Below the pieces are notes generated by a model. The model searched no databases. It had not been told where the DNA came from and worked only from the letters and a program-made list of their open reading frames with translations. Source: an uncultured Bacilli bacterium (lineage in GTDB: Bacteria; Bacillota_I; Bacilli_A; Mycoplasmatales; Mycoplasmoidaceae). From it: a stretch of DNA of 64,000 bases. The stretch lies in assembly GCA_904501665.1 (NCBI GenBank), contig CAJGBT010000001.1, forward strand, positions 657 through 64,656. The letters are read 5' to 3'. The position numbers and the translations under genes were made by a program. Of this stretch, positions 5,963 to 50,920 are shown one piece after another (the stretch's first letter is position 1; the number at the start of each line of letters is the position of its first letter).

Positions 5963-7798
5963 ATGTGTGGAATTGTAGGATATATAACTTATAAAAAAGA
6001 TGCTATTCATAAAGCAATTGAAGTTTTAAAAAAATTAGAATATCGTGGATATGATTCTGCTGGTATTGGTTATTTAGATAATAATAAACAAATTCAAATT
6101 AAGAAAGCAAAAGGAAAGATTAATAATCTAGAAAAACAATTAAATTATAAACTTGATTCAAGTTGTGCTATTGCTCACACTAGATGAGCTACCCATGGTA
6201 TTGTTAATGATATTAATGCACATCCACATTATGGTGAAAATGTTATCTTAGTTCAAAATGGAATTATTGAAAATTATTTAGAACTTAAAAAGACATTAAT
6301 GGATAAAAATATAAAGTTTTATTCTCAAACTGACACAGAAGTTATAACTAAACTAATTGATTACCAGTATTCTATTTTAAAAGATCCAATTAAAGCAATT
6401 AGATCTGCTTGTAAACAAGCTAAGGGTACATATGCTTTATTAATGATGTTTAAACAACAACACAATGTTTTATATGCAGTTTGTGAAAATGCTCCATTAG
6501 TAATTGTTCAAAACAATAATGATGGTTTTGTTGTAGCTAGTGATGTAAATTCTATTAATAATTTTGGTACTAATGATTTTTGGTTTTTAAAAGCAAAGGA
6601 AATTGTAGTTATTGAACAAAATAAAATCCTATTTTTAGACGAAAAGAATCATGTTTTTAAAAAGAAGACAACAAGAGTTAGCATTGATAAACAAGAAAGT
6701 GATAAACAAGGTTTTAAAACCTTTATGCTTAAAGAAATATATGAACAGACTAGTGTTTTATCAAAAGTACTAACTACTTATACTAGTCAAGGTAAGATAA
6801 AATTCACTTTTAATAAGGTTTTAAACAACAACTTCTTAAAAAAAATAGATAAGGTTAGGATTATTGGCTGTGGTAGTGCATATAACTCAGGTTTATTAAG
6901 TCAAACCTTTTTTAATGAATTAGCTAGCATTAAACTTGAATTAATTATTGCAAGTGAATTTAGATATCAAAAATTTATTAAGGAAAAAAATGTTTTAAAT
7001 ATCATTATTTCACAATCTGGTGAAACTGCTGATACTATAGCTTCTTTAAGGTTATTAAAAAAACAAAAAGAAATAATTGTTGCTATTGTTAATAATGTTA
7101 ATTCAACTATTGCTAATGAAGCAGATTTTGTTATTAGTATGAATTGTGGTATTGAACAAGCTGTAGCATCTACTAAAGCATATTCATCAACTTCTTTTAT
7201 TCTCCACTTATTAGCTTTCTATATCGGAAAACTTAAAAATAGCCATCAAATTAATGATGCTTTTTTTATTAAACAAGCTTATAGTAGTATTAATCTTGCT
7301 AATAATTTAATTACTAACAATGATATTGAAAAAATTGTTTCGAAAATTTATAAATTTAAAAATATTTTTTTTATTGGTCGAGGTATTAATTATGCAATAT
7401 GCACAGAAGCCTCATTAAAGTTAAAAGAGCTTAGTTATTTAAATGCTAATGCTTATCCAGCTGGTGAATTAAAACATGGACCAATTTCATTAATTGATCA
7501 CAAAAGCTTATCAATTGCCATTGTGGCTAATGATAATCAAATAATTAATGAAAAGACATTATCTAATATTAAGGAAATTGAAACCCGTAATGGTAATATT
7601 TTATTATTAGCAAGTGAAAATTACAAAAAGTACTTAAATAAAGGTAATATGTTTATTAATAATTTTGCTTCTGATAACCTTTTTAGTTACATCCCATCAA
7701 TTTATATCATTCAATTAATCGCTTATTATACTGCTCTAAAATTAGGTAATGATGTTGATTGTCCAAGAAACTTGGCAAAATCAGTTACTGTTGAATAG
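5963..7798 (+). CDS. glmS: Glutamine--fructose-6-phosphate aminotransferase
   Basis: It starts MCGIVGY (catalytic Cys2). HTR-W(TGA)-ATHG joins ORFs 5954-6187 and 6299-7798. SIS-domain motifs and a C-terminal KSVTVE are present. Confidence 0.9.
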
Positions 7799-9513: not shown

Positions 9514-10008
9514 ATGGCTACTAAAAAATTATCACGAAGTGAAATTTTAAGATTAATTAAGGAAGAAGAGAAAAAAATTGAGATTGCAAAGGATAGAAAA
9601 GATTCATTTCAATTAGTAAAGGAATCAAAACCTAGCAAACCAAAAACTAGAAAAAGTGCTGTTAAAAGTAGTTCATCAAGCAACAAAACAAGAAAAACAT
9701 CAGTTTCTAGTAAGAAAGAAAATGTCCCACCAAGCATACCACCTGTTTATGTTTTTAATAAGGATAAGGATAATAAAGCACCAATTAAAACTATGCCAAT
9801 CCCACCTAAGTTTGAAAATAAAGTTGAAAAGGTTAGTGCACAAAAGGAAGAAGTAGTTGCAAGCACAAATAGTAATAATGAAAATAAAGTATCTAAAAAA
9901 GGACAACTAATTTTTGCTATTACTAGTATAGTTGTCGGTCTTTTGTTAATTGCTGTAATTGTAATTATTATCCTTGGTATTAGTTCAGGTTGAAAATTTA
10001 AATTTTAG
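9514..10008 (+). CDS. Hypothetical Lys/Ser/Pro-rich protein with a C-terminal TM anchor
   Basis: GGAG lies upstream of the ATG. The sequence is low complexity and basic, followed by LIFAITSIVVGLLLIAVIVIIILGI. TGA readthrough reaches TAG at 10006-10008. Confidence 0.55.
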
Positions 10009-10952: not shown

Positions 10953-11180
10953 ATGGCTCTAGCATTAGGACTAGCTCTAGGTTTAGGTATCCCATTTTCA
11001 CTAATTATTGGTGCAGCAATTGGTTATTATATTGCTACTAAAATTTTTAAAAGACAACTAAAAAAGAATCCTCCTATTAGTAAGGATACAATTAGAATGA
11101 TTTATCGACAAGTTGGTAGACAACCATCTGAAAAGCAAGTTAATGAAATATACAACCGAGTTGTGAAAAAATCAGATTAA
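10953..11180 (+). CDS. UPF0154 (YneF-like) small membrane protein
   Basis: 75 aa with an N-terminal TM helix followed by KKNPPISKDTIRMIYRQVGRQPSEKQVNEI, the typical family signature. Confidence 0.7.
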   Translation: MALALGLALGLGIPFSLIIGAAIGYYIATKIFKRQLKKNPPISKDTIRMIYRQVGRQPSEKQVNEIYNRVVKKSD

Positions 11181-33652: not shown

Positions 33653-35551
33653 TTAATCCTCTTCTAATTTAAAATTGATATTTTCATTGATTCAATCTTT
33701 TCTTAGTTGAGCATTATCACCCATTAAAATATTTATTTGTCTTTCAGCAATTACTAAATCTTCAATACTCACCTTAATCAATCTTCTTGTCTTTGGATCC
33801 ATTGTAGTTTCTCATAATTGATCAGCATTCATTTCGCCTAAACCCTTATAACGTTGAATTTCAAAAGATGGATTTTCTTTTTTTAATTTTTCTAAATCAT
33901 TTTCATCTCAAGCATAGTAGAAGGCTTTAGTCTTTTTATTAGTTAACTTATACAATGGAGGTAAAGCTATATATACATGACCATTTTCAACTAGTGGTTT
34001 CATATAACGATAAAACATTGTTAATAACAAAATTTGAATATGGGCTCCATCAGTATCAGCATCAGTCATAATGATAATTTTATGATATTTTAATTTTTTG
34101 ATATCAAAGTTCTTCATGACACCTGTTCCTAAGCAAGTAATAATAGTATTAATTTCTTCATTTTTTAAAACTTCTAAATAGCTTGTTTTTTCAACATTTA
34201 TAACTTTACCCTTCAATGGTAAAATGGCTTGTGTTTTTCGATCTCTTCCTAATTTAGCACTACCACCTGCTGAATCTCCTTCAACTAAAAATAATTCATT
34301 AGTTTTTGGGTCTTTAGTTTGTGGTGGTGTAAGTTTTCCAGATAAAATTCTTTCAATTGAATTTCCTTTTTGTTTCTTAGTAGATTCCCTAACTCTTTTA
34401 GCAGCTTGTCTTGCATCTCTAGCAATGATAGCTTTTTGGATAATTTTTTCAGCTTCTTTTTTGTGTTCTTCAAACCAAAAAGCAATTTCTTTGCTTGCAA
34501 TTTTTTTAGTAGCTTCACGAGCTTCAGGAGTAAATAATTTATTTTTTGTTTGACCTTCATAGCTTATGATATTTTCTGGAACTTTAACAGAAATAACAGC
34601 TCCAATTCCTTCACGTACATCACTACCTTCTAAATTTTTATCTTTTTGTTTAATAATGTTTCATTTTCGACCATATTCATTAAAAATTTCGGTTAAAGCA
34701 ATTTTAAATCCATTTTCATGAGCTCCACCCTCTCCAGTTTTAATCGAATTTGCAAATGAAATAATTGTCTCATTCATATCATCGCAATATTGAAATGCAA
34801 TTTCTACCTCAATTTTATCAATCTTACCTGTAACACTACATATTGGAGAATTAATATTTCTGGTTTCATTGATAAATTTAACAAATTCTGATATCCCTTG
34901 ACTAGATTGAAAAGTATCAGATGTCTTATTAATTTCGTCATTGAAAATTATTTTTAAATTTTTAAATAAAAATGATGCTTCCCTTAATCTTTCACGAATA
35001 ATATTTGGATTAAATTCTATTTCTTTAAAGATTTTTTGATCAGGCTTAAAATGAATAATTGTACCAGTTTTATTCGAATCACCAACAACTGTTAATTTTT
35101 GTTCAATAACAGCACCACCATCTTTAAATTTACATTGGTAAAGTTTACCACCACGACCAACAACACAGATTAATCATTCACTTAGAGCATTAACTACTGA
35201 TGCACCAACACCATGTAAACCACCTGCTGTTGCATATGCATCATTATCAAATTTACCCCCAGCATGCAAAACAGTTAGCACTGTTTCTACAGCTGACATC
35301 TTTGTTTCTTTATTAATATCTACTGGTATTCCTCTACCATTATCCTTTACCATGATAGAGTTGTCTTTTTTAAGAGTAACTTCAATTTGATTACCATAAC
35401 CAGCCATTACTTCATCAATACAGTTATCGAAAATTTCTCATATTAAATGGTGCAAACCTCTACTATCGGTTGAACCAATGTACATTCCAGGTCTTTTTCG
35501 AACAGGTTCAAGTCCTTTTAAGACTTTTATATTATCAGCATTGTAACTCAT
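33653..35551 (-). CDS. parE: Topoisomerase IV subunit B (GyrB/ParE family)
   Basis: [37 protein letters not shown] and the Toprim motif [11 protein letters not shown]. Confidence 0.75.
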
Positions 35552-35746
35552 TAATACCTCTATTTTAATTGATAAAAACAATTTATTTTAACATATGTAT
35601 TTTTACTATGATATATAACTATAATAATTTTTATTGTTTTTTATAAATGGTTTTAACTTTTTTGATTTTAATTTTTCAAAATTTATTTTTTAAAATTTAA
35701 TATTCTAAAAAATGATATAATTTTAAAGAATTTATATATTTTATAT

Positions 35747-36487
35747 ATGAGATATGATGTTTTAGTAGATATTGGTCAAGTAAGACAAAATAATGAAGAT
35801 GTAGCATGAGCTGGTGTAAATAAGAATGAAAATTTTGCCGGGATTGTTTGTGATGGTTTAGGTGGATATAAAGGGGGATCAACTGCTAGTTCAATTGTAG
35901 TTGATGTTTTTAAAGAGCGATTTAGTGATATTAATTTAAATTTCTTCTCTCGAGAAGAAATTTTTGATTGAATCCAAAAAACGATTTCTGTTGCTAGAGA
36001 TAGAATATCCAATAAAATTAAAGAAAATCATCAGTTAAAAAATATGGCAACCACTTTTGTAGCTTGTATTGTTGTCAATTCAAAAGCATATATATTTAAT
36101 ATTGGTGATTCACGAGCATGATATATCTCAAAAAATAAAGCTGAACAAATAACTCAAGATCAAAATTTATATAATTATTTAATTAAAAATAAAGCTGAAA
36201 AAGAAATATTTGAACTATATCGAGATAATCTATATGCAATTACTCAATTTGTTGGGGCTCAAACTGAAAAGAAATTAAGTATTGATGTTTATGAATTTGA
36301 TATTCAAGAAGGAGTATATATTGTACTTACTTCAGATGGGACACATAATTTTATTAGTGTTAATGAAATCAAACGTTGTCTAATTGATAGTAATATGAAA
36401 TTTAACGATGTTTGTACAGCGGTTATTGCTAAGGCTATGGCTAATGGCTCAAATGATAATTTATCAATAGTTATTATGGAATTTTAA
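35747..36487 (+). CDS. prpC: PP2C-family Ser/Thr protein phosphatase
   Basis: GQVRQNNEDV, CDGLGG, GDSRAW and SDG...NDN motifs. Confidence 0.85.
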
Positions 36488-49250: not shown

Positions 49251-49904
49251 TTGCGCTTACGTAATGATCCTAAAGCACAAAGTATTATAAATGAAAATTC
49301 ACACCTATTTGTGTTAAATCCACAAAATTGAAAAGGTAAATGGAAAAAATTTTTTCAAAATAATAATGATATATATTTAGAAATTGGTTCAGGAAAAGGA
49401 CAATTTGTTATTAACCAAGCACTTTTACATCCAAAAACTAATTTTATTGGTATTGAAAAAAATAAAGTAATTTGTGCCAAAATTTTTAAAAAATATAATC
49501 TACTTGAAACTAAACCACAAAACTTAATCATTTTAAACATCGATGCTCGAGACTTATTGCAGGTTTTTGCACAAGGAGAAATAACAAAAATTTTTTTAAA
49601 TTTTTCTGATCCATGACCTAAAAAAAGACATCATAAAAACCGTTTAACGCATAAAACATTTTTAGACATGTATAAGAATGTTTTAACTGATAATGGGATA
49701 ATTGAATTTAAGACAGACAATAATGATTTTTTTGAATGAAGTTTAGAATCAATTCATAATGAAAAATGAAATATTATATATTACACTAAGGATTTATATT
49801 CTGTATTAGAAAATAAAAATAATCTTGATAACATCTCTACTGAGTATGAAGAACGTTTTAATAGGTTAGGAAAAAACATTAATAAAGTTATTTTTCGCCC
49901 TTAA
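49251..49904 (+). CDS. trmB: tRNA (guanine46-N7)-methyltransferase
   Basis: TTG start (LRLRNDPKA). [24 protein letters not shown] and TDN motifs are present. Confidence 0.85.
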
Positions 49905-50470
49905 TAAAACTGATCTTCTTGATCAGCAAAATTTGATAAATAATGAAGTACAAAAGGTGCTTCTTTAGCAATTTCAATATCTTTGATTTTTCTTTCAAGA
50001 AATTTTTCGTCAAAAAGATTTTGTTTTTTAAGTTCTTCAAATAAACTTGATCAAGTTCAATTATTGTGATTTTTATAAAACATTGTATAAATTTGATTTG
50101 TTTGTGTAATGTTTAAAGGATGTTCATCATTTTTTAAAGCAGCAATTAATGGTTCACAATTATGATTATTACCAGCATCATCAGTAAAAATTATATTTTC
50201 TTCAATTACAACTTTTAAACATCTAACTGCAAAATAAAAGTCTCGTTCCATACATTCAACTCATCTTGTGTATGATCCTGATATTCAAATTTCTTTTATT
50301 TTTTCTTCGTTGTCTTTTATATCAACATCTTGATTAGTTGACCAAAAGGTTCTAATGGCATCAAGAACTTTAGAAGTTATGTCTGTAATATCATAAATAA
50401 GCAATTTGCTTTTTTTATATTCTCAAGTTCCAACATCAACAATTATTGTTTTTTCATCTAAACGTTGCAT
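49901..50470 (-). CDS. Hypothetical protein (189 aa), the first gene of the minus-strand accessory block
   Basis: GAAAGGT RBS. I verified the frame codon by codon, with several TGA codons. Its TAA (49901-49903) overlaps the trmB TAA (49902-49904). Confidence 0.6.
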
Positions 50471-50531
50471 ATTAATTTACCTTTCAATGTTTCTAATTTG
50501 ATTATTCATCATAAAAAGATCAAAATAATGA

Positions 50532-50558
50532 AAAAGTACCAACCACCTTGGTACTTTT
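50532..50558. promoter_or_regulatory. Cassette copy 1: inverted repeat AAAAGTACCA-ACCACCT-TGGTACTTTT upstream of the 189-aa gene
   Basis: It has the same arms and flanks as copies 2 and 3, but the 7-nt loop is the reverse complement (one mismatch). Confidence 0.6.
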
Positions 50559-50734
50559 GTGTAATACAAAAATAAGATGAATAAAAAAGCACACTAAAGA
50601 ATTAATGTGTTTTATTTACAAAAATTAAATAGAACTAATTTACCAAATGTAGGGAGAGTGGTAAGTAAGATTCATTAATATATTCAATTAATATATTTAT
50701 GTTTAATAATTTAATACTAATAAATAAAATTAAT

Positions 50735-50885
50735 ATAGGGTGGTAATTTCAAAAACCAAGCACTGGTATATTCATTTTTAAAGCACTGGTAATTTTATTT
50801 CAAGCATAGGTAATTTCAATTATAAGCATAGGTAATTTTAGTTAAAACCACTGGTACTTTATTTTTAAAGCACTGGTAATTTTAT
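50735..50885. repeat. Seven direct repeats with ~22-bp spacing (iteron-like array), core AAGCA(C/T)(T/A)GGTAATTT
   Basis: Repeat starts are at ~50735, 50758, 50781, 50802, 50824, 50846 and 50868, giving spacings of 23, 23, 21, 22, 22 and 22. An AT-rich stretch lies at 50640-50735. Confidence 0.7.
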
Positions 50886-50920
50886 AAAAAAAAGCAAAAG
50901 ATCAGCACTTGTTCTGATCT
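50886..50920 (-). terminator. Terminator candidate downstream of the Rep-like gene
   Basis: AGATCAG cacttgtt CTGATCT, followed on the minus strand by TTTTGCTTTTTTTT. Confidence 0.5.

Follow-up and report, generated by a model that had tools for sequence, protein, structure and literature searches.

What is the function of seven phased direct repeats that follow a small winged-helix gene in a mycoplasma-like genome? The repeats lie in a 64,000-nucleotide stretch from an uncultured Bacilli bacterium of the Mycoplasmoidaceae (GenBank assembly GCA_904501665.1, contig CAJGBT010000001.1, positions 657 to 64,656; hereafter the window), beside the gene of a 206-amino-acid (aa) protein that we call P0001. 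A preliminary description of this DNA had proposed an iteron-type replication origin. After comparing the locus with its relatives, our preferred reading, at about even odds, is that P0001 and the seven repeats are the replication-initiator and origin module of a conjugative-type Mollicutes element, in which binding of the repeats, melting of the adjoining DNA and replication are what we infer from the arrangement.

A phased repeat array follows the P0001 gene

The window makes up nearly the whole of a 64.7-kb metagenome contig (ENA ERZ27234995, k141_487245), has a G+C content of 24% and reads TGA as tryptophan. Lists of open reading frames (ORFs) made with translation table 11 break its genes apart, and we therefore called ORFs with table 4, which the P0001 frame requires; an AAAGGAG ribosome-binding site precedes its ATG at 51666. 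The features of the locus are the following.

51046-51666, minus strand: table-4 ORF of the orphan 206-aa winged-helix protein P0001, candidate initiator and iteron-binding protein
50899-50920, no strand assigned: hairpin AGATCAG-N8-CTGATCT with T-runs on both sides and a terminator score on both strands
50737-50890, no strand assigned: seven direct repeats (candidate iterons), defined by Tandem Repeats Finder and core positions
50737-50751, within the array: terminal variant unit TAATAT-AGGGTGGTAATTT, the unit farthest from the gene
50670-50737, no strand assigned: candidate DNA-unwinding element, 67 bp, 94% A+T, adjoining the array
51740-51766, no strand assigned: palindrome AAAAGTACCA-GGGTGG-TTGGTACTTTT in a 64-nt cassette upstream of the P0001 promoter; membership of the module uncertain
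50532-50558, no strand assigned: second cassette palindrome, at the far end of the module ahead of a 189-aa gene, with a minus-strand terminator score

The seven repeats of about 22 bp with 21-23-bp phasing, as first described, were confirmed by the positions of their cores and by Tandem Repeats Finder. On the plus strand the core reads AAGCA(C/T)(T/A)GGTAATTT, which corresponds to AAATTACC(A/T)(G/A)TGCTT on the gene strand, and its GGTA starts at 50742, 50765, 50788, 50809, 50831, 50853 and 50875, giving spacings of 23, 23, 21, 22, 22 and 22 bp. Tandem Repeats Finder reported a period of 22 with 6.1 copies (score 109) as well as a 44-bp super-period (score 142), and nowhere else in the window did it detect 3 or more copies repeated every 20-25 bp. 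When as many as 2 mismatches were allowed, AAGCAYWGGTAATTT matched 7 times in the 64 kb, against 1.97 matches expected, and six of the seven fell within the array; unit 1 (AGGGTGGTAATTT) is more degenerate than the others. Conservation is limited to the 13-15-bp core, the spacers differing in both sequence and length, which is the pattern expected of protein-binding sites.

The surroundings of the array, too, are as had been reported, with the terminator of the P0001 gene on one side and a very AT-rich stretch on the other. The array begins 165 nt past the stop codon, and the hairpin that sits between the two is, to judge from its score on both strands, a bidirectional terminator separating gene from array. 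The AT-rich stretch at 50670-50737 contains no more than 4 G/C in 67 bp, making it one of six such regions in the window (0.17% of windows of equal length), and it includes 2.2 copies of a 13-bp unit, ATTCATTAATAT, at 50670-50697 (Tandem Repeats Finder, period 13). Past this block, about 70-95 bp from the array, lies a pair of inverted iteron-like half-sites, TTACCA-N13-TGGTAA (50641-50665), whose arms are just 6 bp long and may have arisen by chance.

Gene and array recur together in a small protein family

P0001 belongs to what appears from sequence searches to be a tiny orphan family, all members of which are Mollicutes-like. An HMMER profile search of 1.84 billion representatives returned ten hits, nine of them true members, which are 160-230 aa long except for one 57-aa fragment and all lie on AT-rich contigs that read TGA as tryptophan. 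One homologue was recovered from 5.8 billion clustered proteins, and a cluster look-up added a few further close variants. The GTDB genome scan found the same species only, namely a Mycoplasma sp. metagenome-assembled genome (SGB_7821) with a 98% identical copy of the protein. A tblastn search of PLSDB (72,556 plasmids) with four family members gave no match, no relative was found among 2.9 million viral contigs, and a collection of 50,697 phage genomes yielded one non-significant hit. The two-unit iteron pattern, searched across metagenome contigs, matched twice, both times by chance in coding DNA (38% and 46% G+C) with no family gene nearby.

We fetched and compared the contigs encoding each family member (L numbers below). 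Nine repeat types were found 3' of family genes. In eight of the nine, the array comprises 3-7 direct repeats spaced by about 22 bp, the first of them 86-180 nt beyond the stop codon; in the ninth (L010), about two units lie 19 bp apart before the contig ends. The gene-strand cores are the following.

Window (P0001): AAATTACCAGTGCTT, 7 units
L001 (P0002): AAATTACCAGTGCTT, 3 units
L006 (P0003): AAATTACCAGTGCTC, 3 units
L014 (P0009): AAATTACCACCCC, 4 units
L011 (P0007): GAAATTGTCTGTGCTT, 5 units
L021/L022 (P0014): AAATTG(A/T)G(A/T)GTGAC, 6 units
L012/L019 (P0008/P0012): (A/T)TTGGGGTATAT, 5 units
L008 (P0004): TTTGGGGTATAT / TTTTGGGTAATTT, 4 units
L010 (P0006): AAAGTTTGGGTAT, about 2 units, then contig end

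The core of the window recurs, in the same orientation to the gene, 3' of homologues that are 40-46% identical (L001 and L006) and of P0009 (L014). Of 14 core positions, P0001, P0002 and P0003 have 11-13 in common; for P0004, P0006 and P0008 the figure is 9-13. Protein identity and core identity were correlated across loci (Mantel r = 0.37, p about 0.017), a value obtained with repeat registers of our own choosing. The distal unit, at the end of the array away from the gene, takes a variant form in the AAATTACC branch, AAATTACCAnnC(T/A)ATATTA, which is invariant in four loci whose proteins are 30-46% identical. A common GGTAT motif would place the arrays of the P0004/P0006/P0008 branch in inverted orientation; a register anchored on AAATT, which keeps them in the same orientation, seems the simpler reading.

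The flanks of the array are conserved as well. A terminator hairpin precedes it wherever the downstream DNA is readable, with equivalents of the window hairpin between gene and array in L001, L006, L008, L011, L012 and L014, and the 60 bp past the array rank among the lowest 0.1-4% of their own locus for G+C in six of seven family loci. The neighbouring genes, in contrast, vary by locus, a DprA-like gene lying upstream of the module in the window and downstream of it in L006, so that gene and array behave as one portable module. On sequence comparison, this is a conserved protein-plus-repeat module of an uncharacterised lineage of Mollicutes conjugative elements.

That the array acts as a transcribed repeat RNA, either a type III antitoxin or a protein-sponge small RNA, seems very improbable. 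It is bracketed by a -10-like TAATAT and a plus-strand terminator, and L001 encodes a ToxN-like protein. However, the window holds no ToxN homologue, and in L001 the ToxN-like gene is located 2.3 kb upstream of the array with the relaxase and winged-helix genes in between. Whereas processed type III antitoxin units are near-identical over their full length, conservation here stops at the core, and the spacers vary. The folding energy of the array was no better than that of shuffled sequence (z-scores of +0.63 and -0.82), and Rfam gave no match. The earlier rejection of a type III toxin-antitoxin system is thus upheld. The ToxN-domain protein of L001 (347 aa, Pfam E 2e-12) is itself preceded by a leader at 7264-7446 whose G+C content appears high against the rest of the genome; this leader shows no tandem repeats of the antitoxin kind and has no Rfam match, and it may be an unusual partner RNA of a type III-like toxin.

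P0001 is predicted to contain a single winged helix

AlphaFold2 run with two sequences only gave an unusable model (predicted local distance difference test, pLDDT, of 47). With nine family sequences the mean pLDDT rose to 63, and blocks of 10 residues scored 64-89 across approximately residues 11-140. The model comprises helices (H31-55, H84-90 and H95-107), a beta-hairpin between the first two, and a wing at 111-131, followed by a disordered C-terminal tail that is acidic and contains a tryptophan in most family members. A single winged helix is supported by this model and, together with the Foldseek matches below, it bears out the winged-helix-like nature ascribed to the protein before.

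Structural and sequence searches point weakly towards replication proteins. Foldseek against the Protein Data Bank (PDB) returned winged-helix proteins only, none at E <=1e-3, including MarR, CodY, RTP and the N-terminal domain of staphylococcal RepA_N. Among predicted viral structures, the named matches that ranked highest were replisome organizers, replication initiators, DnaD and protein O, all of them weak (E >=2e-3, low TM-scores). The most recurrent annotated match was phrog_428, 'replication initiation protein', found by 4 of the 9 members (best E 2.7e-5); one member matched phrog_270 (5e-5), and O-like initiators were matched too. Pfam gave nothing above threshold for P0001 or its family, with sub-threshold matches to HTH_36, MarR or Rrf2 and a single one to RepL, and a profile search of PDB sequences retrieved generic helix-turn-helix regulators only (E >=0.07). 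Rep_3 was matched by none of the nine members at E up to 1. The two-domain RepA/Rep_3 architecture was not found, the model containing one winged helix. Assigning P0001 as an initiator from these fold and sequence matches is a lead, not a demonstration.

Palindrome cassettes and the possibility of a transcription factor

The window contains three copies of the cassette palindrome (at 50532, 51740 and 53273), each upstream of a minus-strand gene. The cassettes span 50496-50559, 51704-51767 and 53237-53300, and two of them are 100% identical over 64 nt. The sequence TGGTACTTT occurs in both arms of the palindrome at 51740-51766 (AAAAGTACCA-N6-TGGTACTTTT) and in array unit 6, and AGGGTGGT, at the palindrome loop, recurs in array unit 1, its three occurrences in the window all falling in these two features. 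AAAAGTACTTTT occurs once in the window, at 51837.

The half-site match between palindrome and repeats on which a Rep-dimer operator had been proposed is thus real as far as TGGTACTTT and unit 6 are concerned. The operator role itself is not supported: the palindrome also precedes two other genes, and the palindromes at the equivalent position in homologous elements, which retain the repeat core, are unrelated to it (AAAAAGTTTCAAAATTGAAACTTTTT in L001, GTTGTTAAG-N6-CTTAACAAC in L006). One copy is, in addition, terminator-like, and we treat the similarity of palindrome and array as unproven. In L001 (about 9927-9990 and 11020-11080) and L006 (about 20-60 and 1010-1050), several co-oriented genes are preceded by cassettes of their own, with a palindrome and a promoter-like sequence. 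The palindrome sequence is wholly different from element to element, and the cassettes seem to be a distinct regulatory feature that each element has in its own form; they may act as a global operator of that element, or combine a promoter with an insulating terminator.

Is P0001 then a transcription factor, with the array as an operator or decoy cluster that silences or insulates the adjacent unit or controls a convergent transcript from the TAATAT of the terminal unit? Regulators of the MarR, Lrp/AsnC and CodY types match P0001 as well as initiators do, the terminal unit keeps its -10-like TAATAT at a fixed distance in four diverged loci, and the palindromes before three window genes share TGGTACTTT and AGGGTGGT with the array. 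Nevertheless, we regard this explanation as quite unlikely. The array is never found in the promoter of the P0001 gene but after its terminator, at least 190 bp from the next promoter cassette, the palindromes of homologous elements are unrelated to their own repeats, and seven phased sites beside an AT-rich block would be unusual for an operator.

The module resides on conjugative-type elements

The gene content around the family members indicates which kind of DNA carries the module. L001 encodes a topoisomerase, the ToxN-like protein, a MobL-like relaxase and large surface proteins, and L006 a VirB4-like DUF87 protein. On L019 and L021 we found ParA, a MobL relaxase (43.7 bits, cut-off 28.5), a VirB4-like ATPase and a VirD4-like coupling protein, whose identity to the coupling proteins of Firmicutes and Spiroplasma plasmids is only about 25%. 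The window copy of the module has as its neighbours genes for 189-aa, 147-aa and DprA-like proteins, homologues of genes on the L001 and L006 elements, and hsdS, hsdM, two Fic-like genes and an ASCH gene follow farther along on the minus strand. Judged by these genes, the carriers of the module are conjugative-type elements. We recognised no Rep on any of them. In one branch of the family the module is accompanied by a conserved protein of 242-255 aa in which a topoisomerase-type zinc ribbon is the sole recognisable domain, encoded on L010 (447-1175), L013 (1915-2682) and L019 (7940-8689).

The copy in the window is not free. SGB_7821 ('Mycoplasma sp.') contains the same region at 99.5% identity; its contig matches the window down to 49909 and then continues with more element genes, while the window runs into trmB and chromosomal genes. 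This divergence places an element-chromosome junction at about 49909, within the last codons of the 189-aa gene (49901-50470), and the Logan assembly of SRR11528974 has the same junction. A second strain (L015) likewise has further element genes past about 49909, and its version of the 189-aa protein has a longer C-terminus. As read from this junction, the window copy is not a free plasmid; it belongs to a stretch of a conjugative element that is continuous with chromosomal DNA. We also considered whether L013 and L018 (4.3 kb, with repeat units at both ends) are complete circular small plasmids and rejected this, since the same module is continued in L021/L022 by genes of a MobL relaxase and of a type IV coupling protein; they are assembly fragments broken inside the array.

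The same neighbourhoods raise the possibility of an origin of transfer, in which P0001 would be a relaxosome accessory protein that sits on the repeats and positions the MobL relaxase at a nearby nick site. A MobL-type relaxase gene is located directly upstream of the homologue in L001, and in L019/L021 a single small gene separates the relaxase gene from the array, the orientation being different. That no more than one gene stands between module and MobL relaxase in these two lineages, distant as they are, adds weight to this explanation. The genes on one strand of the window (DprA-like, hsdS/hsdM with no hsdR seen, Fic) also resemble a plasmid leading region. We still consider an origin of transfer unlikely. 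No relaxase is encoded within 14 kb of the module in the window (the L006 contig starts at the gene), and in L019/L021 the array is found 3' of the relaxase operon, outside its promoter region. The known relaxosome accessory proteins of the MobL type (pLS20) are ribbon-helix-helix rather than winged-helix proteins, and known transfer origins mostly combine an inverted repeat with one to three sites, not 3-7 phased repeats with an AT-rich block. The weak homology of the P0001 family favours replication initiators instead.

A centromere-like array with its binding protein, as in TubR/tubC, ParR/parC or the single-protein Par of pSK1, would also fit the repeats in form: a typical centromere consists of 4-10 phased direct repeats to which a small winged-helix or ribbon-helix-helix protein binds, and ParA genes are present on L013, L018 and L019. 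On the other hand, no partition NTPase adjoins the module in the window, L001 or L006. Where ParA is encoded, it is three to five genes away and forms a separate unit with a ribbon-helix-helix-like partner and, in L013, upstream 12-bp ATAGAG repeats of its own; moreover, the conserved AT-rich flank is not a feature of centromeres. A partition site is, in our estimation, rather improbable.

Three further observations concern the elements and the window at large. The hsdS and hsdM genes occupy 53755-56758 with no hsdR seen nearby, and hsdS contains a perfect 24-bp tandem duplication (54356-54404). Basic Gly/Gln C-terminal tails (...SSGQGR, ...KKGQRR, ...NKGQR, ...GGQKN, ...AKGQK) are present on otherwise unrelated element proteins, among them Fic-like, DprA-like and ToxN-like proteins and proteins of no assigned function (window 57162-58004, 58268-59161 and 51953-52780; L015 11197-11796; L001 5242-6102, 7446-8489 and 11867-12514), and could be a shared C-terminal signal, for example for transfer via the conjugation machinery. 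Lastly, a very AT-rich, repeat-containing intergenic region at 35652-35750 separates divergent blocks of genes, the minus strand encoding a gyrB/parE-like protein (33653-35551) and the plus strand other genes from 35747.

Likeness to characterised replication systems

A close parallel in layout is provided by iteron theta replicons (pSC101 RepA, R6K pi, F RepE, pPS10 RepA and the lactococcal pCI305 type with its 22-bp iterons). They share with the P0001 module direct repeats that recur every two helical turns (about 22 bp), an adjoining gene for a winged-helix protein and AT-rich stretch, and repeats that co-vary with the protein. P0001 differs from their Reps in being half as large, in having one predicted winged helix and in giving no Rep match in Pfam. 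Its repeats lie downstream of the gene behind a terminator and not upstream, no DnaA box was found, and the inverted-repeat operator is not conserved.

Phage initiators and replisome organizers (lambda O-like, SPP1 G38P-like and DnaD-like; PHROGs 428, 270 and 391) bind direct-repeat arrays and recruit helicase loaders through their C-termini. They gave the best, though weak, matches to the N-terminal winged helix, falling below significance for family membership, and phage origins are usually located inside the initiator gene. The N-terminal winged helix of staphylococcal RepA_N proteins (pSK41, pTZ2162; PDB 4pql, 4pt7) gave the longest alignments in the PDB search, which at E of about 0.04-0.08, TM of about 0.27-0.40 and rmsd >10 A do not represent a real match. 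RepA_N N-terminal domains also bind iterons, which in that family lie within the rep gene.

Very few replicons have been characterised in Mollicutes. Those described in PMC3541243 are rolling-circle plasmids of the pMV158 family and the unique pMyBK1 of Mycoplasma yeatsii, in agreement with the statement in the preliminary description that Mycoplasma plasmids are few, small and not of the iteron type. pMyBK1 has a relaxase gene, an orphan Rep (CDSB), a terminator and direct repeats; this relaxase-CDSB-repeat unit is the experimentally defined minimal replicon, and single-stranded DNA intermediates showed that pMyBK1 replicates by rolling circle (PMC3541243). Its repeats, two units of about 27 bp some 70 bp apart and three of 11-12 bp, followed by an essential stem-loop, are unlike the P0001 array, and its relaxase is MobV, whereas that of P0001-family elements is MobL. 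Homology of the P0001 family to CDSB was tried and rejected (nothing better than E 1.9 in BLASTP, and -12 bits with the family hidden Markov model), so the resemblance to pMyBK1 is one of architecture only. No iteron-type replicon for Mollicutes turned up in the literature covered.

Weighing an origin of replication

What favours a replication origin is the combination of an orphan winged-helix protein with a co-varying phased array and an AT-rich block, its residence on elements with ParA and a type IV secretion system (T4SS) but no recognisable Rep, and its weak yet consistent similarity to phage initiators. In such an origin, P0001 would bind each 13-15-bp core via its single winged helix, and the 21-23-bp phasing would set the bound proteins on one face of the DNA. 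The resulting nucleoprotein array would melt the adjoining 94% A+T stretch, the acidic, tryptophan-containing C-terminal tail would recruit host replisome proteins, and the bidirectional terminator would shield the array from transcription of the P0001 gene.

Several findings weigh against an origin, beginning with the MobL relaxase genes close to the module in L001 and L019/L021. P0001 has no significant homology to curated Rep families, and its fold matches all have E >1e-3 with low TM-scores; generic MarR, Lrp and CodY regulators score equal to initiators, and one winged helix stands against the two domains of RepA, pi and RepE. The DnaA box TTATCCACA is absent at up to 1 mismatch from all eight modules searched, where at 2 mismatches it occurs at background rate, and GC-skew profiles track gene orientation with no inflection at the array. 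Many genes of the carrier elements have no assigned function, so another Rep is possible; the 242-255-aa zinc-ribbon protein is an alternative candidate for the replication protein on L010, L013 and L019. Finally, the chromosomally joined copy in the window may be silent.

Of the iteron-type origin first proposed, the part that stands is the tie between repeats and protein across nine repeat types, together with the weak homology towards initiators; the two-domain initiator of the Rep_3/RepA class and a DnaA box were not found. We rate an initiator-plus-iteron origin as the most likely function; it would work as known iteron replicons do, yet could not be placed in the Rep_3/RepA class, among the phage O-like initiators or in the pMyBK1 family. 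A system of this kind is familiar; the protein family is new. That this family represents undescribed initiators of Mollicutes conjugative elements, 160-230 aa in size with a single winged helix and an origin of 3-7 phased 22-bp iterons plus an AT-rich block downstream of their own gene, is a tentative proposal, for which our confidence falls a little short of the halfway mark.

Implications for Mollicutes and their mobile elements

Our data imply that large conjugative elements of the MobL/T4SS type circulate in Mollicutes and can join the chromosome. Were the module to turn out to be a transfer origin or a centromere instead, a family of Mollicutes mobile elements so far uncharacterised would still gain a defined DNA site together with its cognate protein. 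If it is an origin of replication, it would represent a new initiator family and help to explain how these elements are maintained, and a minimal genome would carry, inside its chromosome, a second origin of the plasmid type. Mycoplasma genetics and work on synthetic genomes are limited by replicative vectors; as an origin of about 1.1-1.3 kb, the module would offer them a small new replicon and a candidate vector backbone.

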